Assembly (NCBI GenBank): GCA_020434415.1
Contig: JAGRAW010000073.1
Location: 1 to 13,338 of the forward strand
From: Bdellovibrionales bacterium
GTDB taxonomy: Bacteria; Bdellovibrionota_C; UBA2361; SZUA-149
Direction of reading: 5' to 3'
Length of the DNA: 13,338 nt
Shown: positions 749 to 13,338 of the stretch, piece by piece
Layout: the number at the start of each line of letters is the position of its first letter
Numbering within the stretch: the stretch's first letter is position 1
Notes under the pieces: model-generated
Told to the model about the DNA's origin: nothing
The model's input: the letters and a program-made list of their open reading frames with translations, nothing else
Database searches by the model: none
Program-made: the position numbers and the translations under genes

Positions 749-1585
749 TCAGCGTGATGTCGAACGCGATCCCAGTCGAGCTCGAGCGTAGGCGAACGCC
801 AAATCAAAAGCTGTCGCAAAAGCTCCTGCTCCCGGCACAAGCTGAAGCGCTCGCCCAGCTTCGCTGCCCGCAAGCAGTATGGCGTCTCGTGCCGTAAAGG
901 ACCCTTGATCGACGCGCTCCGCTACCCGACGCAACTCTGTTAGCAGCCCGCTTGAGGCACCCGCCGCACCCAGCAGTCTTGCCGGTCCGGCTAGTCGCTC
1001 GCTGCGCCTTGCGAGCGAGACTCCGAGGGCAAGCGGATCCGCCACCTGAAGGATCTGCGTTGCGGTGCGAACGGCGGCATCAAACATACCTCCCAGCCCG
1101 CTCTTCTTCTTGTAATAGAGAACTCGAGGCACGCCGGTTTCCTTATCAAACGAAAAGCGAAAGCGACGCTTTCCGTCGTTCACCCGTAGCTCGTCTAGCG
1201 GGTTCGCCAGGAATTCTCTCAGCTCCGAGTCGAAGCGATCGATAACGCGATTTACCCATTGGTTGTGTCGTTCGCTCGTCCTAACCTCGTATTCGCATCT
1301 CGCTGGAAGCTTCTCGACCGGAATACCGTAGCGCAAACTAATCTCGGCCAATCGCCGGTTCTGTTCCCCCGTGAGGTTCGGGTTGCGCAGGCGAGCAAAT
1401 CCGAGTTCGCTCCATGCAAGGTACCCCTCTCGAGCGTTGCCCGTACCGCCGTTTCGACCGACGGCCTCTGCGACATCACGTCGCCACTGAGGCATAAGAA
1501 AATGCGCCAGTCCCTGAGCACTGAGCTCTCCCGAGTGCGCCGCTGTGGGAATATAGCCTGCCAAGTAAGGCTTTTCTGAAACCAT
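749..1585 (-). CDS. hypothetical protein (279 aa from ATG at 1585-1583; the ORF track starts it at a TTG at 1591)
   Basis: An 840-bp ORF convergent with the CCG gene. GGTAGGAAA-like purine tract lies ~9 nt upstream of the ATG on the - strand. The N-terminal two-thirds look globular (KPYLAGYIPTAAHSGE ... HNQWVNRVIDRFDSELREFL ... VLYYKKKSGLGGMFD). The C-terminal third is Ala/Gly/Leu/Arg-rich (LLGAAGASSGLL ... LVPGAGAFATAFDLAFAYARA). I could not place it in a family. The + strand ORFs overlapping it (952..1245, 1259..1579) are short and low-complexity. Confidence 0.5.
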   Translation of the reverse strand: MVSEKPYLAGYIPTAAHSGELSAQGLAHFLMPQWRRDVAEAVGRNGGTGNAREGYLAWSELGFARLRNPNLTGEQNRRLAEISLRYGIPVEKLPARCEYEVRTSERHNQWVNRVIDRFDSELREFLANPLDELRVNDGKRRFRFSFDKETGVPRVLYYKKKSGLGGMFDAAVRTATQILQVADPLALGVSLARRSERLAGPARLLGAAGASSGLLTELRRVAERVDQGSFTARDAILLAGSEAGRALQLVPGAGAFATAFDLAFAYARARLGSRSTSR

Positions 1586-1696
1586 GTGCAATTTCCTACC
1601 GTTCCTGTAGCCTTCAAAATTTACCGCTCACCGAAGAAGTATTCGCCGTTTTTCTGCAAAGGTTTCCGCTGTCGGAGTAAGCACTCCAAGGGTAGG

Positions 1697-1724: not shown

Positions 1725-1864
1725 TAAAAGGATATTGTCCCCCGAAGCCGGGAATCCAATAATGAGGGCGGACACTATCAGGTTTCTTGGCGACCGCGAC
1801 GATACAACGGGAGCGAAGCGTATTGGTGGGCTAGAGCGGCGCAAACGCAGGCTCTTTTAGCGTC

Positions 1865-1873: not shown

Positions 1874-2335
1874 ATGTTCGAGAAGATCAATCAGTTCCTA
1901 GCCGGGACGGCGAGCCTTGGAGTCGAATCCTCGGGACAGCCCACTGCGCGCGACTTGCAGATCGCGACAGCCGCGTTACTGGTCAAGATGGCCTTCGTCG
2001 ACGAGCGGCTGGCGGATGAAGAGATGAAAGCACTCGTCGGCAATCTCAATCGCCAGTTCCATCTCAGCGACACCGAGGCCGGAGATCTGTTGGAAGTCGC
2101 GGACTACCTTCGACGAGACCAGGCGAAACTCTCGGAATTGATCAACCTCATTCATAAACGCTTCGAGGAGGCTCAGCGCATCACCATCGTCGCAATGCTT
2201 TGCCGAGTCATGCACGCCGACGGCGTGGTCACGAAACTCGAAGCGCATCTTGCCAGTGAAGTCGCTCAATCCCTGAAGCTCTCCATCGCGCAGATTGAAG
2301 CGGCGCAGGAAATGGCCGAGACTGGTCAAGTGTGA
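1874..2335 (+). CDS. TerB-family (tellurite-resistance TerB-like) protein, 153 aa
   Basis: The translation is colinear with E. coli TerB as I recall it. N-terminus MFEKINQFLAG matches MSFFDKVKGAL. Two helical repeats each have a conserved acidic/hydrophobic core: IATAALLVKMAFVDERLADEEMKAL and ITIVAMLCRVMHADGVVTKLEAHL ... IAQIEAA. The length is typical for TerB (PF05099). Confidence 0.8.
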   Translation: MFEKINQFLAGTASLGVESSGQPTARDLQIATAALLVKMAFVDERLADEEMKALVGNLNRQFHLSDTEAGDLLEVADYLRRDQAKLSELINLIHKRFEEAQRITIVAMLCRVMHADGVVTKLEAHLASEVAQSLKLSIAQIEAAQEMAETGQV

Positions 2336-2369
2336 GCACCTAACGGCCCAACCACGCAGCTACGCTTTT

Positions 2370-2376
2370 AAGGAGA
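2370..2376 (+). promoter_or_regulatory. Shine-Dalgarno sequence AAGGAGA for the SPFH gene
   Basis: AAGGAGA lies 7 nt upstream of ATG 2384. Confidence 0.55.
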
Positions 2377-2383
2377 CTTTCAC

Positions 2384-3397
2384 ATGATCTTCAACATTCG
2401 AGAACAGCTTCGCTCCGTCATTGAATGGGAAAACGCCAACAAGGCGAACCTTTTCGAGCAATGGACCCGCAACGGCGACGAGATCAAGAACGCTTCGAAG
2501 CTCATCGTAAAGCCCGGCCAAGGCGTCATCTTTGTCTACGAAGGAAAGATCGAAGCCGTTCATCTCGACGAAGGTCTCTACAGTCTCGAAACGGCGAACA
2601 TTCCTTTCCTGACGACAATAACGAAGCTCCTCCAGTATTTCGAGAGTGAGCACAAAGTCGGCCTTTACTATTTTTGGCAGACTCAGTTTATCGATCAGAA
2701 GTGGGGCACCCCGACCACCATCAAGTACGATGATCCGGTCTACGGTTTCCCCGTAGCACTTCGTGCCCACGGTAACTTCAGCTTTCGAATAGACCGTCCG
2801 GAATTTTTCTTCGTCAATGTCGTCGGTGGAGAGCCGTTATTCACGGTTGAACAGGCCCGACGCACGATCGCCGACCGGTTCCTGCAAGAGCTAGGAGATG
2901 TGTTGGCGTCCTCGGGCTACAGCTATGCAGAAGTCGACCGAAATCGGGTCGAACTCGCAGCGCGCTTGACTGAAAGTCTAGCGCCGACCTGCGCCGCTCT
3001 CGGATTCCAACTGACCGACTTCCGAATCGAGGGCACAGACTTCGATGCCGACACCCAGGCGCGGATCGCGAGAATCGCGGATTTGACAGCCGAGGCCGAG
3101 GGAGCACGACGAGCAGGTCTCAGCTATGCCGAGCTCCAACGACTGGAGGCTCTCCGAGAAGCCGCCCGGAACGAAGGTGGGCTTGCAGGTGCCGGTGTCG
3201 GTCTCGGAGCAGGCCTTGGCATCGGACAAGCGTTTACCGCGGGAATGGCGCCGGGACTGCAACCGCCCCAGGCGGCAGCAGCGGCTCCTTTGGATCCGAC
3301 AGCGCGCCTGGCGCAACTCAAAGGCCTGCTTGACTCGAAGCTGATCAGCCAAGAAGAGTTTGATTCCAAGAAAGCGCAAATTCTGGCAGATCTGTAG
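2384..3397 (+). CDS. SPFH/band-7 (stomatin-prohibitin-flotillin-HflKC) domain protein of the COG4260 / Bacillus YdjI type, with a Gly/Ala-rich linker and a C-terminal SHOCT domain
   Basis: The N-terminal 230 aa align by eye with B. subtilis YdjI. VIEWENANKANLFEQWTRNGDEIKNASKLIVKPGQGVIFVYEGKIEAV corresponds to VVEWEEFRDDMIFYKWNNREIKKGSRLIIRPGQDAVFLNNGRVEGV. ETANIPFLTTI corresponds to ESEIIPFLSTL. A low-complexity linker follows: GGLAGAGVGLGAGLGIGQAFTAGMAPGLQPPQAAAAAPLDP (~3175-3295). The C-terminus ARLAQLKGLLDSKLISQEEFDSKKAQILADL (~3305-3394) fits the SHOCT consensus (L.eLk.LldkGlIteEEFe.kKakiL). Confidence 0.85.
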   Translation: MIFNIREQLRSVIEWENANKANLFEQWTRNGDEIKNASKLIVKPGQGVIFVYEGKIEAVHLDEGLYSLETANIPFLTTITKLLQYFESEHKVGLYYFWQTQFIDQKWGTPTTIKYDDPVYGFPVALRAHGNFSFRIDRPEFFFVNVVGGEPLFTVEQARRTIADRFLQELGDVLASSGYSYAEVDRNRVELAARLTESLAPTCAALGFQLTDFRIEGTDFDADTQARIARIADLTAEAEGARRAGLSYAELQRLEALREAARNEGGLAGAGVGLGAGLGIGQAFTAGMAPGLQPPQAAAAAPLDPTARLAQLKGLLDSKLISQEEFDSKKAQILADL

Positions 3398-3483
3398 TGT
3401 GCGATGAGCAAGATTCGCTCGTGCGCGTGCACCGGGTAACAACTCTTCCGAGTGCCTAATCCAAAGGACTTACGCAAGAGCGC

Positions 3484-4098
3484 ATGACCGTCCAGCAATA
3501 CAACTGCCCGACCTGCGGGGCACCGCTTCCTGTCGAGAACCGCTTTTCTCTGCAAGTAATCTGCAGCTACTGCGGCCAGTCCTCTCGGATTACTCCGCAG
3601 GGGCTTGACCCCAGCGGAGAGAAGGCGCTGCTCGCCGACTTCCCTTCTATCTTGTCAATCGGCGCTACAGGAATGCTCCGCGGCACACCGTTTAAAGTGC
3701 TCGGAATGCTTCGGTTCAAGTATGACGGCGGGTTCTGGGATGAATGGTTTCTGGCGCTGGACACCGGCAAAAAGCTTTGGCTGCAAGAAGACGAAGGCGA
3801 GTTCACCGCCTTCGAGAAAGAGCAGTTGACGTCACCGGTGCCGCCCTTCGAGGAAATGCAAGTGGGCTCCCTTGTTCCGGTCAACGGCAAGCAATTTTTC
3901 ATCATGGAAAAACGCCGCGCGGTGCTTGCCGGCGGCCGCGGCGAGCTGACTTTCGTTGTCACTCCCCACAGCGCCGTCGGCTGCGTAGATGGCAACGCCG
4001 GGGGGATCTTGATGAGCATCGAATATCTTCCGGATGAGATCAACCTTTCCTGGGGAGCGGAGGTCCCTCTCGAGGAGCTGCAAGTCGACGCTCCATGA
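3484..4098 (+). CDS. zinc-ribbon + DUF4178-like domain protein (YdjG-like partner of the SPFH protein), 204 aa
   Basis: The N-terminal CPTCGAPL ... CSYCGQ (nt 3505-3516 and 3562-3573) is a CxxC...CxxC zinc ribbon. The remaining ~150 aa (GTPFKVLGMLRFKYDGGFWDEWFLALDTGKKLWLQEDEGEF ...) match my recollection of the DUF4178 family pattern. It sits immediately downstream of the SPFH gene. The stop TGA 4096-4098 overlaps the next ATG (ATGA). Confidence 0.65.
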   Translation: MTVQQYNCPTCGAPLPVENRFSLQVICSYCGQSSRITPQGLDPSGEKALLADFPSILSIGATGMLRGTPFKVLGMLRFKYDGGFWDEWFLALDTGKKLWLQEDEGEFTAFEKEQLTSPVPPFEEMQVGSLVPVNGKQFFIMEKRRAVLAGGRGELTFVVTPHSAVGCVDGNAGGILMSIEYLPDEINLSWGAEVPLEELQVDAP

Positions 4099-5279
4099 GC
4101 GGCAAGTTCAAACCGGAATCGTTTCTCGCGCTGGGAAAAGAGTGTACCTATCGAGACGTCCGCTACCAAATCATCGGTCGGATCTGTAAAGAAGCACAAA
4201 TCAGCGAATGGGATGCTGAAGACCAACGCTACTATGATGAACCCTGGAGTTCCGACCTCTGGGTGTTGGTTGGCGCCCAGAAAGAGTATCTGTACATCAC
4301 GGAGGATCGCGAAGGCTATGCGATCTCGACCGCCTTCACACCCAGTGCTCCGAGCATCCCACCGGAAGATGCAAGAACGATGACGCTGGAGACAGCCACG
4401 CCTCCACGACGAATCTTGGAACGCGGCACTGCCAAAACTGTCTATTTCGAAGGCGAGTTTACCTGGACCCCAGCCATCGGAGACATCGACAAATACTGCG
4501 AGTATGATGCAGGCGGGGTTCGCTACAGCGTCGAATGGAAAGTGTCGCCTGACGGCGCGGGCATCGAAGAGGTCGAGTTTTTCGCGACCCGCCCCATCGG
4601 CAAGCTCGAGCTTGCCGAACTCTTCGGAGAACAGTCGATACTGGATGAAGCTCGCCGAGCGTCTCAGCATAAAGCACAGTACCGACAGTGGTCGGTGCTA
4701 TTCTGGGTGGCCGGAATGATCTCGACGCTCTTCGCTGTCACCGCCCTCTTTCGTGAAGGCACCCTCGTCGATCGCTTCGAAATCGAGATGGCCAAGATTG
4801 CTGACACCGGGCTCATTCGGGGCCCCTTTCAGCTTGATCAGGTGGGCCGGGTCCACGAGCTCGTGCTCAGCACCTCCATCCCCGACAACAGTGAAGCATG
4901 GGGAGCTGCAGAGCTTCTTAACGGTGAACAGGCAGCGATCAATGCGCTGGAGGGAGAATTTTGGCGGGAATCAGGGTATGACTCGGATGGGCACTGGTCA
5001 GAGAGCGACACCACCCATAGCAGGCTCTTCCGCCTCGACCACCCCGGAACCTACTATGTCCGTCTGATGGCCGACGGGGCATCGGCACCTGCGGCAACCC
5101 TGCGCTTCGAATTATACAAAGACGTACCGCTCGCCCGCTGGTATATTCTGACAACCCTGCTTTGCTTCGGGCTAGCGGTCGCGATGGTCAAATATCAGTC
5201 GACGAATCCCCTCTACATTGTCGCTGGGCTTTTCGCCGTCGGATATTTCGTGCTGTCGATGCTTGCCGACGATGATTGA
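4095..5279 (+). CDS. membrane protein with an N-terminal DUF4178-like soluble domain, one central TM helix, a ~125-aa intervening domain and a C-terminal double TM anchor (394 aa)
   Basis: It is translationally coupled to the previous gene through the ATGA at 4095-4098. The N-terminal ~190 aa repeat the pattern of the preceding protein: TYRDVRYQIIGRI ... EWDAED ... YDEPW ... LWVL versus TPFKVLGMLRF ... GGFWDEWFLAL. Hydrophobic segments: WSVLFWVAGMISTLFAVTALF (~nt 4689-4758), and WYILTTLLCFGLAVAMV ... LYIVAGLFAVGYFVLSML (~nt 5130-5265). Confidence 0.6.
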   Translation: MSGKFKPESFLALGKECTYRDVRYQIIGRICKEAQISEWDAEDQRYYDEPWSSDLWVLVGAQKEYLYITEDREGYAISTAFTPSAPSIPPEDARTMTLETATPPRRILERGTAKTVYFEGEFTWTPAIGDIDKYCEYDAGGVRYSVEWKVSPDGAGIEEVEFFATRPIGKLELAELFGEQSILDEARRASQHKAQYRQWSVLFWVAGMISTLFAVTALFREGTLVDRFEIEMAKIADTGLIRGPFQLDQVGRVHELVLSTSIPDNSEAWGAAELLNGEQAAINALEGEFWRESGYDSDGHWSESDTTHSRLFRLDHPGTYYVRLMADGASAPAATLRFELYKDVPLARWYILTTLLCFGLAVAMVKYQSTNPLYIVAGLFAVGYFVLSMLADDD

Positions 5280-5299
5280 CAGATCAAGGTAGGCCACGG

Positions 5300-5533
5300 A
5301 TGACGCCATTTTCGAAATTCTTGATTGCAACACTTGCCGGATCGGCACTGTTGCTTCCGTATTTTGCGTCGTCTCGCGGGTGGGGAGTCGGCTCAGAGCG
5401 AAACGCCGGCATCGCGGCGCTCGCTGCCCAGGACTGCCTCCGAAAGGATGCTGCCGGCCGCTGTATCGCCGGTCATCGAAGCTATTTTCGGCGCCGCAAT
5501 TACATCGGGGGCGGCATGCGCTCCGGCAAGTGA
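5300..5533 (+). CDS. possible small (77-aa) signal-peptide-bearing protein in the repeat-rich spacer; very tentative
   Basis: ATG 5300 is preceded by AAGGTAGG (5285-5292) at a 7-nt spacing. The translation is MTPFSKFLIATLAGSALLLPYFASS|RGWG..., which has a signal-peptide shape. The mature part is Gly/Arg-rich with 2 Cys. Codon usage is not clearly like the neighbouring genes, and it could be spurious. Confidence 0.2.
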   Translation: MTPFSKFLIATLAGSALLLPYFASSRGWGVGSERNAGIAALAAQDCLRKDAAGRCIAGHRSYFRRRNYIGGGMRSGK

Positions 5534-5535
5534 AC

Positions 5536-5565
5536 GGCACGCAGTGACCTCGCACGCAGTGACCT
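5536..5565. repeat. 15-bp tandem direct repeat x2 (sGCACGCAGTGACCT)
   Basis: ggcacgcagtgacct / cgcacgcagtgacct, read directly at 5536-5550 and 5551-5565. Confidence 0.9.
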
Positions 5566-5588
5566 GTCGAGGAGGGACCTATATGCAT

Positions 5589-5621
5589 GAAAAGCAGACC
5601 ATATACAGGAAAAGCAGACCA
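5589..5621. repeat. 13-bp direct repeat GAAAAGCAGACCA x2 with 20-bp periodicity
   Basis: gaaaagcagacca at 5589-5601 and again at 5609-5621. Confidence 0.9.
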
Positions 5622-5622
5622 C

Positions 5623-5667
5623 GCAATGAAGCGCGGGGCAATGAAGCGCGGGGCAATGAAGCGCGGG
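5623..5667. repeat. perfect 15-bp tandem direct repeat x3 (GCAATGAAGCGCGGG)
   Basis: gcaatgaagcgcggg occurs three times head-to-tail at 5623-5637, 5638-5652 and 5653-5667. It lies 44 bp upstream of the DUF350 start codon. Confidence 0.95.
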
Positions 5668-5695
5668 CTGAACAAGTCTTTGGCAATGACCACAC

Positions 5696-5700
5696 GGAGG
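5696..5700 (+). promoter_or_regulatory. Shine-Dalgarno sequence GGAGG for the DUF350 gene
   Basis: GGAGG lies 10 nt upstream of ATG 5711. Confidence 0.5.
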
Positions 5701-5710
5701 AACACCATCC

Positions 5711-5938
5711 ATGCATTCAACGTTTACCGGTAACCCTGTTGTAGACGGCGTCCTCGCCACGATACTCTATAGCGGCATCGGCATCTTGATGGCCTTCATC
5801 GCGTTCAAAGTCGTAGACATGATAACGCCTGGTGACCTTGGCAAGGCGATTTCCGAGAATAATCTGGCCATGGCAGTACTTGCCGGGTGCAGCATTCTCG
5901 GCATCAGCATCATTATTGCCGCGGCAATTGTCGGCTAG
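5711..5938 (+). CDS. DUF350 family small membrane protein (75 aa, two TM helices)
   Basis: MHSTFTGNPVVDGVLATILYSGIGILMAFIAFKVVDMITPGDLGKAISENNLAMAVLAGCSILGISIIIAAAIVG. The size, two hydrophobic helices, the central ITPxDL-E motif and the N-AVA-L-G-IL-AIII-AAI tail are as I remember DUF350 (PF03994). Confidence 0.75.
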   Translation: MHSTFTGNPVVDGVLATILYSGIGILMAFIAFKVVDMITPGDLGKAISENNLAMAVLAGCSILGISIIIAAAIVG

Positions 5939-6056
5939 GTCGCCGGAACTACCTCTCGCCAGTCCGGCAGCATCAAAGGCCGCGGCTGCCGGTGCGCTCT
6001 CCGGGCTCGGGCGACGCTGTCACACGGTTCTCGCCCGACGAAAAAGCGCCTAAGCA

Positions 6057-7622
6057 ATGTCCGAACTATCGCAGCATTCTCCGGCCGAAGCGCTTGAGTC
6101 CGCGGCCCGCCCGGCAACCAGCCGGGAAATTGCGGTGCTCGGCACGGCCATTCTCATTACCTCCGTTTGCGCCATCGTCTACGAACTGCTGGTAAGCACC
6201 CTTTCCTCGTATCTCCTCGGCAGCAGCGTCCTACATTTTTCTCTGACCATCGGACTCTTCATGACGTTCATGGGTGTGGGTGCCTTCTGGTCGAAGTTCA
6301 TCGACACCCGATTGCTCGACTGGTTCATCTTCATCGAACAATTGGTCGGCCTCATCGGCGGCTGCGCCGCGTTTCTTCTCTATCTCAGCTTCAGCCTGAC
6401 CGAGTACTACTACCTGGTAGCGTTTCTGCTGATTGCGGCAATATCGACCTGCGTCGGCTTGGAGATCCCGCTTGTCACGCGAGAGCTACGGAAACATCGC
6501 GAACTAAAAGATGCCTTGGCCAATATTCTGGCCATCGACTACCTGGGGGCGCTGATCGCCTCGATTCTGTTTCCGATCGTGCTAGTCCCCTACCTAGGAC
6601 TAATGCGTACCGCGTTTCTGATGGGAATGCTGAACGTGGGAACGGCAATAGCTACGGCGGTGGTGTTCCGAACGCGACTGACTTTTTTTCGCTTTCATCT
6701 TACCCTGGGTCTGAGCTTTCTTGTCGTGCTCGGCAGCGGGTTCCTATATTCCTTTCACTTGATCGGTTTCTATGAGCAAAATCTCTATCAAGACGAGATC
6801 ATTCACTCCGAGCAGAGTAGCTATCAGCGCATCATTCTAACCCGCTTCGACGACGATATCCGCCTCTATCTCAACGGAAGTCTGCAATTCAGCACGATTG
6901 ACGAGTATCGTTACCACGAGACACTGACGCATATCCCGCTCGGTGTTGTCCCCAACCGGGAGAACATCCTGATTCTGGGCGGGGGTGACGGACTCGCCGC
7001 ACGAGAAGCCTTGAAGTATCCTGATGTGCAGTCGATAACGCTCGTCGATATCGATGAACGTATGACCACGCTTGCGGCGGAGCACCCGATTTTGCGGAAA
7101 CTGAACGCAGAGTCACTCTCGGCGGCGCGGGTGAAGGTAATAAATCAGGATGCCTGGGAGTTTCTTGCAACCGATCCTTCGCTCTACTCCGCAATTATCA
7201 TCGACTTGCCCGATCCGGACGATTTTGCGGTCGGCAAGCTGTATACACAGGAGTTCTACCGGCTTGCGAAGCGACGACTCGCCGCCGACGGTGTGTTGAT
7301 AACTCAGGCGTCATCACCGTTTTTTGCACGAGAACCCTTCTGGTGTATTCACCACACGCTCGAAGCGGTGTTCAGCCACGTCCAACCACTGACGCTTTAT
7401 GTCCCTTCCTTCGGTCCCTGGGGATTCCACCTAGCCTCCGGTCGTAAATTTGACGTAAGCGACGTCAAGTTAGTCGTACCCACTCGCTTCCTGAACGCGG
7501 TAACGCTCGAAAGCGTTTTCACCGTAGCACCCGATGAGGGTGAGGTTTCGACGGAGCTAAACCGACTCGACAATCAACATCTGGTAACTCTCTACGAGCA
7601 AAGCCTGGATGACTGGAACTAA
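6057..7622 (+). CDS. speE: membrane-anchored polyamine aminopropyltransferase (spermidine/spermine-synthase family) with an N-terminal ~7-TM domain, 521 aa
   Basis: The C-terminal half carries the spermidine-synthase signatures: ILILGGGDGLAAREALKYPDVQSITLVDIDERM (GGGDG ~6978-6992), IIDLPDPDD (~7199-7222) and GKLYTQEFY. The N-terminal 230 aa are a run of hydrophobic helices (ILITSVCAIVYELLV ... LTIGLFMTFMGVGAFW ... LVGLIGGCAAFLLYL ... YLVAFLLIAAISTCVGL ... LGALIASILFPIVLVPY ... GMLNVGTAIATAVVF ... GLSFLVVLGSGFLY). This is the same architecture as the large TM-fused SpeE proteins that follow DUF350 genes in other bacteria. Confidence 0.85.
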   Translation: MSELSQHSPAEALESAARPATSREIAVLGTAILITSVCAIVYELLVSTLSSYLLGSSVLHFSLTIGLFMTFMGVGAFWSKFIDTRLLDWFIFIEQLVGLIGGCAAFLLYLSFSLTEYYYLVAFLLIAAISTCVGLEIPLVTRELRKHRELKDALANILAIDYLGALIASILFPIVLVPYLGLMRTAFLMGMLNVGTAIATAVVFRTRLTFFRFHLTLGLSFLVVLGSGFLYSFHLIGFYEQNLYQDEIIHSEQSSYQRIILTRFDDDIRLYLNGSLQFSTIDEYRYHETLTHIPLGVVPNRENILILGGGDGLAAREALKYPDVQSITLVDIDERMTTLAAEHPILRKLNAESLSAARVKVINQDAWEFLATDPSLYSAIIIDLPDPDDFAVGKLYTQEFYRLAKRRLAADGVLITQASSPFFAREPFWCIHHTLEAVFSHVQPLTLYVPSFGPWGFHLASGRKFDVSDVKLVVPTRFLNAVTLESVFTVAPDEGEVSTELNRLDNQHLVTLYEQSLDDWN

Positions 7623-7670
7623 CGATGGTCGGCGTGCTACTATCCCTGCTCCGCTCTGACCACCTAGCCC

Positions 7671-7676
7671 AAGAGG
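7671..7676 (+). promoter_or_regulatory. Shine-Dalgarno-like AAGAGG for the Mre11/SbcD-like gene (TTG start)
   Basis: AAGAGG lies 4 nt upstream of TTG 7681. The gap to the speE stop is only 58 bp. Confidence 0.4.
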
Positions 7677-7680
7677 TTTC

Positions 7681-8997
7681 TTGTCCGCGAGTGCTCGCAT
7701 TCTCTGTATTGGCGATGTCCACCTCGGTCGCGCTCCGACGCGCCTGCGTCTGGACAACGAGTGGTATGAAGGTCTTGGCCCTCGAGAAGCCCTGCGCCGG
7801 GCGGCTCGAGAGGCAATCGAACTGCAAGTCGATGTGGTCGTCTGCACCGGTGATGTCATCGACCAATCAAACGCCTTCTTCGAGGCTCATCGGGTGCTTC
7901 GAACCGTCGCAGGACAACTGACTGAAGCGGGCATTCCGTTCGTAGCGATAAGCGGCAATCACGACTACGAATCCTTACCCGAATGCCAAAAGCAGGTACC
8001 AGGGCTCACCATCCTTGGTCGGAACGGCAGTTGGGAAGAATTCGTCATTGTGCGTGACGGGACGCCCCTGCTTCGACTGCTTGGTCGGTCGTTTACCGAC
8101 CGCTATCAAAAGACCAATCCCCTGGAGGGCTTCGACCTTCCTGCAGACGGCGTTCCCAGCGTCGGACTTCTGCACTGCGATGTGGACGTTCCCGACAGCC
8201 CGTATGCTCCAGTCGATCTGAGAAGCCTTTTAGCGACCGCCCCGTCCGCCTGGCTCCTAGGCCATGTACATAAACCGCAACTTCTTTCCACACGACCTCT
8301 CATCTTGTATCCCGGTAGCTTGCAGGGCCTTGATCCGGGCGAGCCGGGAGTCCGCGGACCCTGGCTAGTCGAGGTCTCCGCCGACGGTCAAACCACCGCC
8401 AACCAACTGCCGCTGGCTCCTGTGCGCTACGAGCGGCTCGAGGTAGCAATCGACGATCTCGAGTCGATCGAGCAAGTCAGTGGTGCAATCGCGGAAGCGG
8501 TAAGTTCGTGGAGAACGATCAATTCCGCGGAGCTTCGACTGACACGCTTCGTGTCGCTGCGGTTGGTGTTGACCGGCAGTACGACCCTACAGCAATCTCT
8601 CGCTGTCCTTGCAGCTCGGCTCACGAGTCAAAGAGAGCGCTTCGACGACGACGAACCGTACATCGTCATCGACAAGGTACTGATCGAGTGCAGCCCCCGA
8701 ATCGACCTTGCGACATTGGCAAGAAGTAACGATGTTCCCGGCTTGTTGGCGAAGCGGTTGTTGGTACTGAAAAACCAAAATCCGCATGAGGCATACCGTT
8801 CCCTGATCGAACAAGCAGGCGCAAAGTTGGCGAACGTGCATGCCGATCCGCTCTTTTCTGATATCGCAAAAGACCGGGCACTAAGTGAAGTCGCTATCCG
8901 TGACACGCTTATTCGTGCAGGCACCGTTGCGCTTCATACTCTGCTTGCCCAACAAACTCCCGCCGTCGACCATCCGTCGCCTGAGAATTCCGGATGA
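7681..8997 (+). CDS. Mre11/SbcD-type calcineurin-like metallophosphoesterase (DNA repair exonuclease family; B. subtilis YhaO-like), 438 aa, apparent TTG start
   Basis: Phosphoesterase motifs are in canonical order: GDVHLG (7711-7728), GDVIDQ, GNHD (7954-7965), HCDVDV, GHVH (8260-8271). A ~200-aa C-terminal extension follows the catalytic core. The stop TGA 8995-8997 overlaps ATG 8994 of the next gene. Confidence 0.8.
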   Translation: MSASARILCIGDVHLGRAPTRLRLDNEWYEGLGPREALRRAAREAIELQVDVVVCTGDVIDQSNAFFEAHRVLRTVAGQLTEAGIPFVAISGNHDYESLPECQKQVPGLTILGRNGSWEEFVIVRDGTPLLRLLGRSFTDRYQKTNPLEGFDLPADGVPSVGLLHCDVDVPDSPYAPVDLRSLLATAPSAWLLGHVHKPQLLSTRPLILYPGSLQGLDPGEPGVRGPWLVEVSADGQTTANQLPLAPVRYERLEVAIDDLESIEQVSGAIAEAVSSWRTINSAELRLTRFVSLRLVLTGSTTLQQSLAVLAARLTSQRERFDDDEPYIVIDKVLIECSPRIDLATLARSNDVPGLLAKRLLVLKNQNPHEAYRSLIEQAGAKLANVHADPLFSDIAKDRALSEVAIRDTLIRAGTVALHTLLAQQTPAVDHPSPENSG

Positions 8998-11900
8998 AGC
9001 TTCAAAAACTGCACATTAGACGCATGCCGGGAGTTTCCGACTTCGAGCTCTCCGATCTCGCCACCGGCGTCACTGTCGTCACCGGACCGAACGGGTCCGG
9101 GAAGACAACCGCCTGCCGAGCCATACGCGGATTGCTCTGGCCGGAGGAGCTCCGCAACGTCGTCTTTCCTGAACTCGAAAGCACGTGGCTTCTTGACGAC
9201 GGTCGAACCGCCACGCTGAGTGTTTCCGGAGCAGACCGCCGCTGCTACATTGAGGGAAGCGTGCAGGAGTCCCTCTCCCTACCTCCCTCCCACCTCGCGT
9301 CATGTTATACCATCACGATTGATGACTTATTCGCGGACAACGATGCCGAACTCGCCCGTGAGGTCGAGCGGGAACTGTCGGGCGGGTTTGATCTTGCTGC
9401 AGTGATGCAGGCGGAGGCGCTGCAGGTAAAGCGCACACGTATACGAGACGCCGTACGGCACATCCAGCAACTTTCGCTCCGCGTCAGAGAACTGCAGTCG
9501 GCGCAGCGTGCACTACACCTCAAACGCGAAAAGCTCGCTGAGATGGAGACGCGAGCGAGCGAAGCCAGACGCGCGCAAACCCGCCTAGCTCGAATAGATG
9601 ACGCACTTCGCCACAACACAGTACTGCGTGATCTTGAAGCACTTCGTTCGCGACACACGCAGTTTCAACCGGCAGTAGCTCGTATCTGCGGCGGAGAAAG
9701 ACGTGAGCTCGAGCGTCTCCAAAGTGAAAGTATTGAACGTCGGCAGGAGGCCGCAAGCGCGGCGGAAGCTCTAGAGCAAGCCGCAGAGCGGCTTGCAACG
9801 ACAGGAACAACCTTTGCCGACTTAGCGCTGCGAGACCAGCTACACTGTCGCGACCAGATCGAAACGCTTCGAGCTCTTCAAGCAGACATCGAGCAGCGCG
9901 AAGCTCATATCGAGGGATTACTGACCACGTGCCGTTCTCTGCAGCGGAAGCTCGGAGGTCTAGGGAATCCCGCCTCGTTGGCGTTGCTCGAGCCTCAAGA
10001 GCTCGAGGAGATCGAACAGTTCCAGCGACTCGTAGAAAGCCACGAAGCGAAGGTCTTACAGCTGCGCACACAACTGCAGATTGCCGAAACCGAGCTAGGT
10101 TCCGGGCCCCTGCCTGCGTCGGAAGAACTACGCGAACAGATTCGCCTACTCGAACAGTGGCTCGCGCTTGACAGTACGCACCGCATCGCGACCGTTCGCA
10201 CGCTGGTGGCAGCGGGCAGCGTTGCTGCCGTTGTAGCAATCGTGACAACTCTCTTCCTTGCAACCGACGGTTTTCGCGCGAACAACAGTGACCCGCTCTG
10301 GTTTACAGCCACGGCAATTTCGTTAGGAACGCTGCTCTTCTTACTCTTCGCCGCGCGCGGCGATGCTCGCCGAAAGCGAGCACTGGAGGAGGAGTTCCTC
10401 AGCCGCTACCAACCGCAGGCGGTTCCCTTCGAAGCGCCCTACGTCAGATCCACGATCAGTTCCTTACTTGAAACATACGAGCAAAGCCGTCGTGTGGAGC
10501 ACGCGGAACAAACGGCGAAAGACGTCCGAACCCTTTTGAAGGGTATGGAAACAGAGGAAGCTCGAATCCAACGAACCCAGGGTCTACTCGCTGAGCGCTT
10601 GGGGTGCGCCCCGAGCGCCTCCACACTGACGTTAGTCGCCTTTGCGTCTTCCCTTCGCGATTTCCAACAAAGCTACCAAGCTCTCGAAGCTTCGAACGCG
10701 GAACTGGAACACCGAATCGAGGAACGAAATCGCATCCTCGGAGCGGTCAATCGCTTCTTCGGACAGTTTTCCGTACCGGAAGTAGCGTCTGGAGCGGCGG
10801 CGAGTGCCTCGTATGCCGAACTCGAGGTTCGTGCCGCACAGGGAAGAACGGCGACGCAAGAGCACAAGCTCGCGCAGGCGGCCGTAGAACGAGCACAAGC
10901 AGCCCTCGAGCGAATAGATGCGGCGCGAAAGGCTTTTTTTGAGCGCTTCGATTTACCCGACGACGCGGACGCTGCTTTCGAAACGCTGATGTCCGATTTC
11001 GAAGCATTCGAACAGTCGAAACTCAAGATTCAAGAACTCGAACGGGAACGCGTCTCCATCGTCGACCGCCTGGAAAGGGATGCGCCTGACCTACTACAAC
11101 TATCTGAGGACGAACTAATCGTCGAGCAACTGGAGGCGCACCAACTCGGCGAACAAGCGGATGCGCTTTGGTCTACTGTGGTCGAGACGCGCCTTCTGAT
11201 CGGGCAAGCGGAACAAGAGACGGTGCTCGAAGAAGCACTTCGTGATCTTGAAGAGTCCCGCGCTGCACTTGCGGAATACCACGAGCAGACGCTTCTAGCA
11301 GGTGCTGCCGATGTGCTGCTCGCTACCGTAGTGAACGAACACGAGAGCACCCGCCTGCCCGCAGTACTGCTTAGAGCGAACGAGCTGTTCGAACGCTTTA
11401 CCCACCAGCGCTACGGTTTGCTCCGCGCGGAACAAGGGGAGCGAGAACCGACGTTTCGTGCTCGAGACCTTGCGACCGGAGCGGTGGTCTCGCTGGAAAG
11501 TCTTTCGCGAGGCACACGATCGCAGCTTCTGCTCGCGGCACGAGTCGCTTTTGCTGAGCATCAAGAGCGGCGGGAGCGACTACCTTTCGTCCTCGACGAA
11601 GTTCTCAGCAGCACCGACCCTCAGCGGTTCCAGCGTGTCGCGGAAGCCCTATTCGCACTCGCCGCAGACGGACGTCAGCTTTTGTATTTCAGTTGCCAGC
11701 CCTATGATGCAGAGCAGTGGGCACTTGCGGCGTCAGCAAACCCTGCTGTTGCCGTGCGCTTTCTCGAGTTGACTCACAGTGGACGAGCGTCTACGGCGCC
11801 CGCACCCCTTGCCGCCCAGGCCATTGCACGGCTCGAAAGTGCAGTCGAAGCCCCGAACGGACGCTCCATTAGCGCCTACATCGAAGCGCTACGTCTCCCA

Positions 11901-12551
11901 CCTCTCAAAGTGTTACAAGGAGCAGAGGCTGCTCATCTGGGCCACCTGGTTACCGATCCGGAGCTGCTTTACCGGCTACTGAGTACCGGTCTTCATCGCT
12001 TTGGACAGCTTCGCCGTCTTATCGCAGCAAATGCTTCCGCTGGCTATATTGGCGAAGCTGATCGGGCCCAAGTCGAAGCGCGTGCTAAACTTATCGATCG
12101 CCTCTGCGCCGATGCCCGGATTGGACGAGCGAAGGTCCTTTCGACGGAGGCACTTCTTTCGTTTGTGAGTACGAGTAAACGGCTCGAACAGGAGCTGGTC
12201 CAGCTTACTACTACCCTGGGCGGCGATGCCACACTGCTGCTTCAGCTGATCGATCCCGCTCGCCCGGGAGGATCGCTGATTCCCGGCTTTCGTAAAAATA
12301 CCTTCGAGAAGCTACGCGAGCGTCTAATCGAGGAAGGATACGTCGCTTTCGAAGCACGGTTGCCCCGGGAAGAAACGTGGTTACGCTTTCTCGCCCATGC
12401 CGAACCCGCAGTTACATCCGGGATTCTCGATCCTGGGGAGGTCAGCGCATTTTTCGCACTGCTGTGGGACACCATTCCGCAAGCTCCGTCGGAAGTGGTA
12501 CCGCCGGCCTCAGCGCAGGAGCTTTCCAATGTCGCACAAGCGGGACGCTAA
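8994..12551 (+). CDS. SMC-like Rad50/SbcC-family ATPase (B. subtilis YhaN/SbcE-like), 1185 aa, with a two-helix transmembrane hairpin inserted in the coiled-coil arm
   Basis: Walker A GPNGSGKTT (9084-9110). Long heptad-like, Arg/Glu/Leu/Gln-rich coiled-coil halves (aa ~140-395 and ~460-900). ABC signature-like SLSRGTRSQLLLAARVAF (11499-11522) precedes Walker B/D-loop FVLDEVLSSTD (11586-11618). Mid-protein hydrophobic hairpin: TLVAAGSVAAVVAIVTTLFLA - TDGFRANNSDPLW - FTATAISLGTLLFLLFAA, followed by RGDARRKRA (nt ~10199-10355). Confidence 0.8.
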   Translation: MKLQKLHIRRMPGVSDFELSDLATGVTVVTGPNGSGKTTACRAIRGLLWPEELRNVVFPELESTWLLDDGRTATLSVSGADRRCYIEGSVQESLSLPPSHLASCYTITIDDLFADNDAELAREVERELSGGFDLAAVMQAEALQVKRTRIRDAVRHIQQLSLRVRELQSAQRALHLKREKLAEMETRASEARRAQTRLARIDDALRHNTVLRDLEALRSRHTQFQPAVARICGGERRELERLQSESIERRQEAASAAEALEQAAERLATTGTTFADLALRDQLHCRDQIETLRALQADIEQREAHIEGLLTTCRSLQRKLGGLGNPASLALLEPQELEEIEQFQRLVESHEAKVLQLRTQLQIAETELGSGPLPASEELREQIRLLEQWLALDSTHRIATVRTLVAAGSVAAVVAIVTTLFLATDGFRANNSDPLWFTATAISLGTLLFLLFAARGDARRKRALEEEFLSRYQPQAVPFEAPYVRSTISSLLETYEQSRRVEHAEQTAKDVRTLLKGMETEEARIQRTQGLLAERLGCAPSASTLTLVAFASSLRDFQQSYQALEASNAELEHRIEERNRILGAVNRFFGQFSVPEVASGAAASASYAELEVRAAQGRTATQEHKLAQAAVERAQAALERIDAARKAFFERFDLPDDADAAFETLMSDFEAFEQSKLKIQELERERVSIVDRLERDAPDLLQLSEDELIVEQLEAHQLGEQADALWSTVVETRLLIGQAEQETVLEEALRDLEESRAALAEYHEQTLLAGAADVLLATVVNEHESTRLPAVLLRANELFERFTHQRYGLLRAEQGEREPTFRARDLATGAVVSLESLSRGTRSQLLLAARVAFAEHQERRERLPFVLDEVLSSTDPQRFQRVAEALFALAADGRQLLYFSCQPYDAEQWALAASANPAVAVRFLELTHSGRASTAPAPLAAQAIARLESAVEAPNGRSISAYIEALRLPPLKVLQGAEAAHLGHLVTDPELLYRLLSTGLHRFGQLRRLIAANASAGYIGEADRAQVEARAKLIDRLCADARIGRAKVLSTEALLSFVSTSKRLEQELVQLTTTLGGDATLLLQLIDPARPGGSLIPGFRKNTFEKLRERLIEEGYVAFEARLPREETWLRFLAHAEPAVTSGILDPGEVSAFFALLWDTIPQAPSEVVPPASAQELSNVAQAGR

Positions 12552-12643
12552 CGCTCCGGACTCGGTCGCCTTCGGCGAGGCCATCAGTGTTCCGGTGAGG
12601 GCGTCAGGTTTCAGAGAGTTCTCGCAGATGGAGCAGCACCAGG

Positions 12644-13300
12644 CTAGCGACCGACAGAGATCGGATCACTAGCCGGAAACGAGTCTTCCAGCGCCTGGTC
12701 AAGCTTTTCGTTCAATGCTTTTCGCTCAGCCTTCGATGCACCACTTCCGCCTCGTTCATCCACTTTTTCAGGCGAATTTGCCTGTTCGTACAGGTGCTTC
12801 GTCTCACCAGCACCCGGCCCCGTTTGATCGACCGGCCTTTGATCAGCAGTAAATTGATCAACAGTAAATTGATCAGCATGGCGCGGCACCATAAAGGCGT
12901 CGATCATTGCATGTGCAGCGATCAAAGGGGCGATCCATTCGCTATGGGCTACGAAGTCGCCATCAACGAGCAAAGCGTGGTCACCTGTCGTGTCACATAT
13001 CACTATATACCACTCACTCGCAGCGCCTTCGTGTGCAAGGTCACCTAGCTCAATTCGAAAGCGACCAGGCAACGCCTGCACTCTTTGCTCATCAAGCAAC
13101 GACGGGGAATCAATCAGCGTCTGACGCCGCGGCTCCAGATTGCTGGTCGACAATATGCCCCCGGCCAGCACCTGCTCCTGCACGGCCTCAGGCACCTGGC
13201 GCACCCACGAAGGCATTTCCGTGTTTTGACGAGCAAGGTGTCCCCATTGAAGGAGCATAATTCGCTCCAAGCGGTCTCTCGGTATGATCGGTAGCTTCAT
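12644..13300 (-). CDS. hypothetical protein; the reading frame stays open to the window edge at 13338, so the true start may lie outside the window
   Basis: The 219-codon ORF is convergent with the SMC-like gene. Upstream of ATG 13300-13298, codons continue without a stop (IVISDDEANTGL-MKLPIIP). The N-terminal part looks globular (EWYIVICDTTGDHALLVDGDFVAHSEWIAPLIAAHAMIDAF). The C-terminal part is low-complexity and charged (GPGAGETKHLYEQANSPEKVDERGGSGASKAERKALNEKLDQALEDS). I recognised no family. Confidence 0.4.
   Translation of the reverse strand: MKLPIIPRDRLERIMLLQWGHLARQNTEMPSWVRQVPEAVQEQVLAGGILSTSNLEPRRQTLIDSPSLLDEQRVQALPGRFRIELGDLAHEGAASEWYIVICDTTGDHALLVDGDFVAHSEWIAPLIAAHAMIDAFMVPRHADQFTVDQFTADQRPVDQTGPGAGETKHLYEQANSPEKVDERGGSGASKAERKALNEKLDQALEDSFPASDPISVGR
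12841..12878. repeat. 15-bp tandem repeat x2.5 (GATCAGCAGTAAATT / GATCAACAGTAAATT / GATCAGCA) with recurring TTGATC(A) cores, inside the minus-strand ORF
   Basis: Read directly. Two more TTGATC copies lie at 12823-12828 and 12839-12844. On the - strand the repeat is in frame and encodes (A)DQFTVDQFTADQ. Confidence 0.85.
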
Positions 13301-13338
13301 CAAGCCAGTATTGGCTTCGTCATCGGAAATTACTATGA

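Follow-up and report, generated by a model that had tools for sequence, protein, structure and literature searches.

Gene content of the cluster

The window analysed here, a stretch of 13,338 nucleotides (nt), is the entire contig JAGRAW010000073.1 of a metagenome-assembled genome (MAG; assembly GCA_020434415.1) labelled Bdellovibrionales bacterium. Between positions 1874 and 12551 it carries a gene cluster, encoded throughout on the + strand, in which a membrane/polyamine module of known type precedes an SbcEF-like Mre11-Rad50 cassette predicted to be anchored in the membrane. The module (Unit A, 1874-7622) ends with a gene for a membrane-fused spermidine/spermine synthase (SpeE), and the cassette (Unit B, 7681-12551) is a nuclease and ATPase pair. 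The features of the cluster are as follows (lengths in amino acids, aa; TM, transmembrane; bp, base pairs; pLDDT, predicted local distance difference test).

1874..2335, + strand: gene 1, TerB-domain protein, 153 aa (Pfam TerB, 73.6 bits)
2384..3397, + strand: gene 2, SPFH protein with a Gly/Ala-rich linker and a C-terminal SHOCT domain, 337 aa (Band_7_1, 128.5 bits; SHOCT, 29.5 bits)
3484..4098, + strand: gene 3, zinc-ribbon-like N-terminal segment followed by DUF4178, 204 aa (DUF4178, 36.1 bits; Zn_ribbon_3, 17.9 bits, sub-threshold)
4095..5279, + strand: gene 4, divergent DUF4178-like protein with three hydrophobic segments, 394 aa (DUF4178, 17.9 bits, sub-threshold)
5300..5533, + strand: unnumbered gene, small conserved membrane protein, 77 aa, MTPFSKFLIATL...GGGMRSGK (homologous reading frame at the same position in relatives)
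5537-5565, 5576-5621 and 5623-5667, no strand: three tandem-repeat arrays with units of 15, 20 and 15 nt, in a 177-bp spacer (5534-5710)
5711..5938, + strand: gene 5, DUF350 (YjfL-type) 2-TM protein, 75 aa (Pfam, 52.5 bits)
6057..7622, + strand: gene 6, 7TM N-terminal domain fused to a spermidine/spermine synthase (SpeE), 521 aa (NF002956, Spermine_synth, hydropathy)
7623..7680, + strand: junction between Units A and B, 58 bp (terminator and promoter scans, folding)
7681..8997, + strand: gene 7, Mre11/SbcD-fold metallophosphoesterase (Metallophos), 438 aa, TTG start (Pfam Metallophos, 50.6 bits; motifs; AlphaFold2 and Foldseek)
8994..12551, + strand: gene 8, Rad50/SbcC-like ABC ATPase with long coiled coils and no CxxC hook, 1185 aa (motifs; family profile against the PDB)
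10203..10352, + strand: putative membrane hairpin of gene 8, two hydrophobic segments (aa 404-422 and 435-453) between the coiled-coil arms (hydropathy)
11706..12548, + strand: C-terminal extension of gene 8, ~280 aa, all-helical and conserved across the family (predicted model, pLDDT 86.5)

A preliminary description of this DNA had reported eight + strand genes, ATGA stop/start overlaps at 4095-4098 and 8994-8997, and intergenic gaps of 48, 86, 118 and 58 bp. All eight open reading frames (ORFs) were recovered at the coordinates it gave, both overlaps are legible in the sequence and the gap lengths are correct, while the domain predictions for the eight products were each reproduced with Pfam or NCBIfam, that of DUF4178 in gene 4 remaining sub-threshold. 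The repeats that it noted in a 430-bp spacer upstream of gene 5 are present (5537-5667), but the size of the spacer did not stand, as this region also holds the 77-aa gene and the true spacer measures 177 bp. The conservation of the 77-aa gene at 5300-5533 makes this a cluster of nine genes, not eight.

A membrane/polyamine module without PspA

The Band-7-SHOCT, DUF4178, DUF350 and TM-SpeE genes of Unit A form a co-directional cluster with no PspA gene within the 13.3 kilobases (kb) of this contig. The SpeE portion of gene 6 scores 576 bits against NCBIfam NF002956 (cut-off 472 bits) and 130.5 bits against Pfam Spermine_synth, and seven hydrophobic segments are evident in its hydropathy profile. 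The product of gene 4, with hydrophobic segments at aa 201-219, 344-362 and 373-391, has only 18 relatives among 5.8 billion proteins, and this gene marks a rare version of the membrane module. A constant order (SPFH-SHOCT, DUF4178, DUF4178-TM, small protein, DUF350, TM-SpeE) is observed in the contigs that encode gene 4 relatives, and the order of the whole module is the same in eight related loci (L030, L084-L089 and L092). Identity of the SPFH protein across eight module loci is 61-71%. TerB is an accessory first gene, restricted to the sublineage comprising the window, L030 and L084. A 280-aa protein without a Pfam family, encoded on the minus strand of the window (749-1591) and transcribed divergently from TerB, is conserved together with TerB in this sublineage only.

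Operons of this kind have been described, in keeping with the DUF4178/DUF350/TM-spermidine-synthase neighbourhood named in the preliminary description. In the excerpts of Ravi et al. 2024 (PMC11237479) drawn on here, PspA-CesT/Tir operons that include DUF350, DUF4178 and a spermine/spermidine synthase fused to a 7TM domain are reported, as is a related, PspA-free polyamine operon in which a Band-7-2TM-SHOCT protein takes the place of the PspA dyad and a gene for S-adenosylmethionine (AdoMet) decarboxylase lies nearby. Genes 2 to 6 of the window combine components of the operon types in these excerpts: the Band-7 and SHOCT domains, DUF4178, DUF350 and the 7TM-fused synthase are encoded co-directionally, and AdoMet decarboxylase is added in relatives. 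Unlike the operons as they appear in the same excerpts (PMC11237479), the module encodes two DUF4178-type proteins, of which one contains TM segments, and a 77-aa membrane protein, and TerB has been added in one sublineage; a Mre11/Rad50-like pair is not mentioned alongside such operons in these parts of the source.

Neither AdoMet decarboxylase nor any other linked polyamine gene was found within the window. An AdoMet decarboxylase gene does, however, adjoin the pair-less module in L092 (7406-7789), L096 (3993-4367) and L088, and an AdoMet decarboxylase-spermine synthase fusion is encoded on the opposite strand a few genes downstream in L085 (19353-20444), L086 (13062-14141) and L087 (15953-17056). 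The presence of these genes near related modules reinforces a role of the module in polyamine metabolism, and comparative genomics links modules of the Unit A type to polyamine-dependent membrane homeostasis. Unit A is a PspA-free membrane/polyamine module comprising an optional TerB protein, a SPFH-SHOCT scaffold, two DUF4178 proteins, a small membrane protein, DUF350 and a 7TM-aminopropyltransferase.

The 77-aa gene, a small conserved gene of the membrane module that was previously unannotated, is preceded by a Shine-Dalgarno-like sequence (AAGGTAGG, 5286-5293). Its product has a hydrophobic N-terminal segment, two conserved Cys residues and a C-terminal GGGxRxGK motif, and matches no Pfam family. 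Homologous ORFs occur in the ten related module loci inspected, those listed being L030, L084-L088, L092, L094 and L095. Downstream, the DUF350 product of the window lacks the N-terminal signal peptide (~25-30 residues) seen in the alignment in all eight relatives, and the repeat arrays at 5537-5667 sit where the relatives encode this signal peptide. The loss of the signal peptide, together with the repeats, could reflect a recent rearrangement or an assembly artefact.

A Mre11-Rad50-like pair with a predicted membrane hairpin

The complete set of phosphoesterase motifs (DxH, GD, GNHD, H and GHxH) is present in gene 7, where D12/H14, G57-D58, G92-N93-H94-D95, H165 and H195/H197 are invariant or nearly so in 54 homologues and in the module-linked copies. 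An AlphaFold2 model derived from the 54 homologues (pLDDT 93) was compared with the PDB using Foldseek, and all of the top 50 matches were Mre11 or SbcD structures, the best being 3tho_B (E = 6.9e-15 over 426 columns) and the SbcCD chain 7yzp_B. Some alignments span ~420 columns of Mre11 chains taken from Mre11-Rad50 complexes. The Foldseek TM-scores are only 0.43-0.67, which leaves the position of the C-terminal domain less certain. The curated SbcD/Mre11 cut-offs were not reached by gene 7, which scored 39.2 bits on TIGR00619 (cut-off 77.65) and ~26-33 bits on the NCBIfam Mre11 equivalogs (cut-offs 500-600). Gene 7 has an Mre11/SbcD fold in this model, in agreement with the SbcD-like nuclease identity first assigned to it.

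The protein encoded by gene 8, which is identical to a database entry, has the Walker A (GPNGSGKT, aa 31), signature (LSRGTRSQ, aa 837) and Walker B (VLDE, aa 866) motifs of an ABC ATPase head. Pfam matches include AAA_23 (28.3 bits), SMC_N and, marginally below its cut-off of 22 bits, AAA_27 (21.6 bits), and most homologues carry a precomputed PF13514 match. When the family profile was compared with the PDB, Rad50 was the best match (N and C lobes, E = 1e-11). No CxxC zinc-hook motif is found anywhere in the protein, and two hydrophobic segments replace the hook as a putative membrane hairpin. A central hydrophobic segment is present in every gene 8 locus shown in the hydropathy output, and P476 and W479, located ~25 residues past the hydrophobic segments, are near-invariant in 27 homologues. 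The C-terminal extension has no convincing match in the PDB and no Pfam family, a few weak structural matches to cullin winged-helix domains aside. With a hydrophobic hairpin in the middle of the coiled coil, the complex would be tethered to the inner membrane, and its nuclease and ATPase heads would lie on the cytoplasmic side.

The pair shares several features with SbcE/YhaN of Bacillus subtilis, a SMC-like protein with a 'unique central domain' that is hydrophobic and followed by a conserved proline, and its SbcD-like partner YhaO/SbcF (PMC2811018). As in that system, the Metallophos gene lies directly 5' of the Rad50/SbcC-like ATPase gene, and gene 8 is hookless, with a hydrophobic centre and then a conserved proline, as in the published description of SbcE (PMC2811018); the membrane-hairpin SMC-like protein first proposed is borne out to this extent. 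Two gene 8 homologues are named 'uncharacterized protein YhaN' by JGI. The ATPase family differs from SbcE in its length of ~1150-1190 aa, which includes the extra conserved ~280-aa C-terminal helical domain that Bacillus YhaN is not known to carry. It also differs in the AAA_27 score of gene 8, which falls marginally under the cut-off, and in having been sampled here in Gram-negative phyla and haloarchaea, not in Firmicutes. The Mre11 fold with all phosphoesterase motifs in gene 7, the gene 8 head motifs split by long coiled coils and the translational coupling of the two genes through the ATGA overlap are features in common with SbcCD/Mre11-Rad50. Unlike in the latter, however, a membrane hairpin is predicted in gene 8 instead of a zinc hook, gene 7 scores far below the NCBIfam SbcD and Mre11 cut-offs and gene 8 has an additional C-terminal domain. 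A literature search on COG4717, AAA_27 and SbcEF yielded nothing beyond the 2009 SbcE paper.

A pattern scan covering one genome per species located relatives of gene 8 in at least 559 stretches of bacterial and archaeal genomes, with Planctomycetota, Bacteroidota, Gemmatimonadota, Chloroflexota, several proteobacterial groups and many haloarchaea among the matches listed. Ten haloarchaeal plasmids or megaplasmids, all predicted to be non-mobilizable, carry such relatives, annotated only as SMC or AAA family ATPase, and no homologue was found in phage genomes. Of the loci retained, 77 extend far enough upstream to be informative, and in 76 of these the Metallophos gene lies directly 5' of the ATPase gene; no third gene family recurs alongside the pair in more than six of 86 loci. 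This constant order and the lack of any other recurrent family indicate that Unit B is a self-contained two-gene cassette.

Origin and inheritance of the junction

The association of the two units was followed from both sides, using ~80 distinct pair loci from other phyla, with neighbours within 10 kb, and nine contigs that reach past SpeE (the window, L030, L084-L089 and L096). The contigs of P0073 and P0071 stop before the gene following SpeE, and a metagenome scan with the gene 4 family returned two short contigs only, with no further neighbourhoods. Co-occurrence in related genomes, on which the preliminary description had made its proposal depend, was observed: besides the window, the pair follows SpeE in L030, L084, L085 and L086, and thus in five of the nine contigs. 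In the remaining four, SpeE is followed by minus-strand genes (L087), by gyrB and gyrA (L088), by unrelated genes (L089) or by AdoMet decarboxylase (L096). From the pair side, no module gene was found within 10 kb of the ~80 loci from other taxa, and the sole module-linked match among the loci listed is L030, another Bdellovibrionales genome.

Among the five linked pairs there are three groups, and identity between these groups is 35-41% for the nuclease and 23-28% for the ATPase. Their concatenated proteins nevertheless form one clade with a bootstrap of 1.0 in a neighbour-joining tree of 79 loci, and their topology, ((window,(L030,L084)),(L085,L086)), is that of the module-protein tree. Separate acquisitions at an insertion hotspot, which the low identities of 23-41% might suggest, were rejected in view of this clade and its congruence with the module tree. 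Together, the single clade and the congruent topologies point to a junction that formed once and was then inherited vertically. Between L030 and L084, identity is 96% for SPFH, 79% for SpeE, 64% for Metallophos and 52% for the ATPase; the pair evolves consistently faster than the module, at rates that fit vertical descent.

The gap between SpeE and the pair varies from 58 bp in the window through 64 bp in L084, 104 bp in L085 and ~117 bp in L030 to 327 bp in L086. Immediately 5' of the Metallophos start, a conserved intergenic block, TTGACC...TTGGGATCTTC...TAACGATGTA, is shared by L085 (13480-13554) and L086 (6975-7047) and may constitute a separate promoter or operator of the pair. In the window, the 8-mer TAACGATG likewise extends across the stop codon of SpeE. 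In L030 (8640-8830) the Metallophos N-terminus (MPHDTS...CLADLHLGR) is out of frame with the remainder, and this frameshift indicates either a pseudogene or a sequencing error in the MAG. The pair-less L087 has genes in common with the window and L084 on the upstream side, and with L084-L086 on the downstream side. The minus-strand genes that follow SpeE in this contig (13536-15209) include two adjacent DUF2130 fragments, possibly representing one split gene.

Transcription signals and other features of the window

The scan for terminators detected no terminator-like site in any + strand gap of the cluster, in accordance with the preliminary observation that these gaps lack a hairpin followed by a T-run. 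This agreement is uninformative, as the same scan was likewise blank at the convergent end of the cluster (12552-12643); in total, 22 terminator-like sites were detected where 15 were expected, which is unremarkable. The 58-bp junction (7623-7680) contains neither a terminator-like nor a promoter-like site according to the scan and folds no more stably than shuffled sequence (z = 0.66). Structured RNA was not detected, with no Rfam match and no intergenic fold more stable than shuffled sequence. Upstream of the cluster, the divergent intergenic region 5' of TerB contains the following candidate, by consensus match only.

1735..1763, + strand: candidate cluster promoter, TTGTCC-17-AATAAT

Five promoter-like sites occur in the window, with 3.9 expected by chance. 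Beyond the cluster, a minus-strand ORF of 219 aa (12644-13303) has no family match and no homologue in related contigs, and includes ~2.7 copies of the 15-nt tandem repeat TTGATCAGCAGTAAA at 12824-12878.

Relationship between the two units

The cluster is probably best explained as two autonomous units placed side by side and joined once, an arrangement for which no mechanistic coupling needs to be invoked. In Unit B, translational coupling links the Mre11/SbcD-type nuclease to a Rad50-like ATPase with a hydrophobic hairpin in place of the zinc hook; this unit was placed behind SpeE once, in an ancestor of a small, uncultured Bdellovibrionales-related lineage, and has descended vertically since. 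The 58-bp gap without a terminator makes it probable that Unit B of the window is read through from an upstream promoter, and co-transcription across Units A and B is plausible here. By analogy with the proposal for SbcEF of B. subtilis, Unit B may process DNA ends or hairpins near the membrane. Since their joining was a single event in a single lineage, and each unit is found without the other elsewhere among the loci sampled, there is no evidence that they work together. The functionally fused system envisaged in the preliminary description is not upheld, as the five junctions trace to one event and four sister modules (L087, L088, L089 and L096) are pair-less. Nor is the functional linkage it proposed, as the ~80 pair loci listed from other phyla are without a module gene and flanking synteny is conserved regardless of the pair. 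One inherited adjacency is all that speaks for mechanistic coupling.

Several observations weigh against this explanation. The sample is small, with nine informative module contigs, and the pair-less modules fall outside the linked clade with only 58% bootstrap support. Across the three sublineages the block from SPFH to the ATPase is intact even though the upstream flanks are different, and the junction has been kept despite divergence of SpeE to ~52-57% identity. The two units have stayed co-directional, the gaps are short (58, 64 and 104 bp) at three of the five loci, and a retained junction of this form would also be expected from selection for an operon.

An integrated system of the kind first proposed would be a single nine-gene operon with a joint function, in which the membrane-stress/polyamine module senses or scaffolds at the membrane and positions or gates the anchored Mre11-Rad50-like nuclease. 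The single strand, the 58-bp junction devoid of terminator-like sites, the retention of the junction in three deep sublineages with differing upstream flanks, the membrane association of products of both units predicted from hydropathy and the intact catalytic motifs in all linked copies of the pair would all fit this explanation. It is nevertheless unlikely, since the junction arose only once, sister modules and pair loci exist without their respective partners, regional synteny is conserved regardless of the pair, the gap in L086 extends to 327 bp, the L085/L086 block could be the pair's own promoter and the Metallophos gene of L030 is frameshifted. A single machine in which, for example, a SPFH-organised membrane patch recruits or licenses the DNA-end nuclease upon envelope disturbance or when DNA crosses the membrane is distinctly unlikely, and what probability it retains it owes to the persistence of the junction in those three sublineages.

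The pair could alternatively be an anti-phage or anti-plasmid cassette that destroys incoming DNA at the envelope and landed behind SpeE as a mobile accessory element. A patchy distribution in bacteria and archaea, which includes haloarchaeal plasmids, faster divergence than that of the neighbouring genes and the presence in L087 of other genes at the site of the pair, between SpeE and the shared downstream genes, are in keeping with this possibility. The pair of Salinibacter ruber (L003, 1-23543) is, furthermore, located near PglZ, a SNF2 helicase, GajA/GajB-like genes, a reverse transcriptase, toxin-antitoxin genes and an integrase, an assemblage with Gabija- and BREX-like members. An ABC/SMC-like ATPase combined with a nuclease, and one homologous pair within a defence island, are also features in common with Lamassu, Wadjet, Gabija and PARIS. 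Unlike these systems, however, gene 7 has no match in PADLOC-DB 2.0 and gene 8 only generic, short N-terminal P-loop matches (at most 31 bits), so that no system model is matched, as the preliminary description had anticipated. SpeE matches mad2 in the same database through its generic methyltransferase fold only. When the 123 nearest neighbours of the pair in 40 further loci were classified with Pfam and PADLOC, defence families were essentially confined to the Salinibacter locus, with no enrichment, and the neighbours were mostly heterogeneous, housekeeping-type families. The boundaries of a mobile element were sought around the pair in the window and only chance-level repeats, with no tRNA and no integrase, were found; homologues are absent from the phage genomes searched and vertical inheritance within the lineage is atypical of the rapid turnover of defence genes. 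The cassette is thus quite improbable as a mobile defence element, and the defence interpretation offered at the outset finds no backing in PADLOC or in the neighbour census; a defence role of the pair has little support.

An activity of the pair on a membrane or nucleotide substrate rather than on DNA, in line with the neighbouring membrane module, might be suggested by the predicted hairpin and unannotated C-terminal helical domain of gene 8 and by the inclusion of non-nuclease enzymes in the Metallophos superfamily, but is extremely improbable given the exclusively Mre11/SbcD top 50 structural matches of gene 7, some over ~420 columns of Mre11-Rad50 complexes, the best match of gene 8 to Rad50 and the DNA-repair and transformation phenotypes of the B. 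subtilis homologues (PMC2811018).

Implications

The apparent fusion of the two units is a single lineage-specific event and so does not constitute evidence for a new system. What the locus brings to light is a two-gene cassette distributed across many bacterial phyla and haloarchaea, whose ATPase carries a conserved extra C-terminal domain. If the junction between the two units were functional, it would for the first time offer a clue from gene context to two poorly understood systems, the SbcEF-like anchored pairs, which are widespread yet almost unstudied in their role, and the PspA-free polyamine/SPFH modules.

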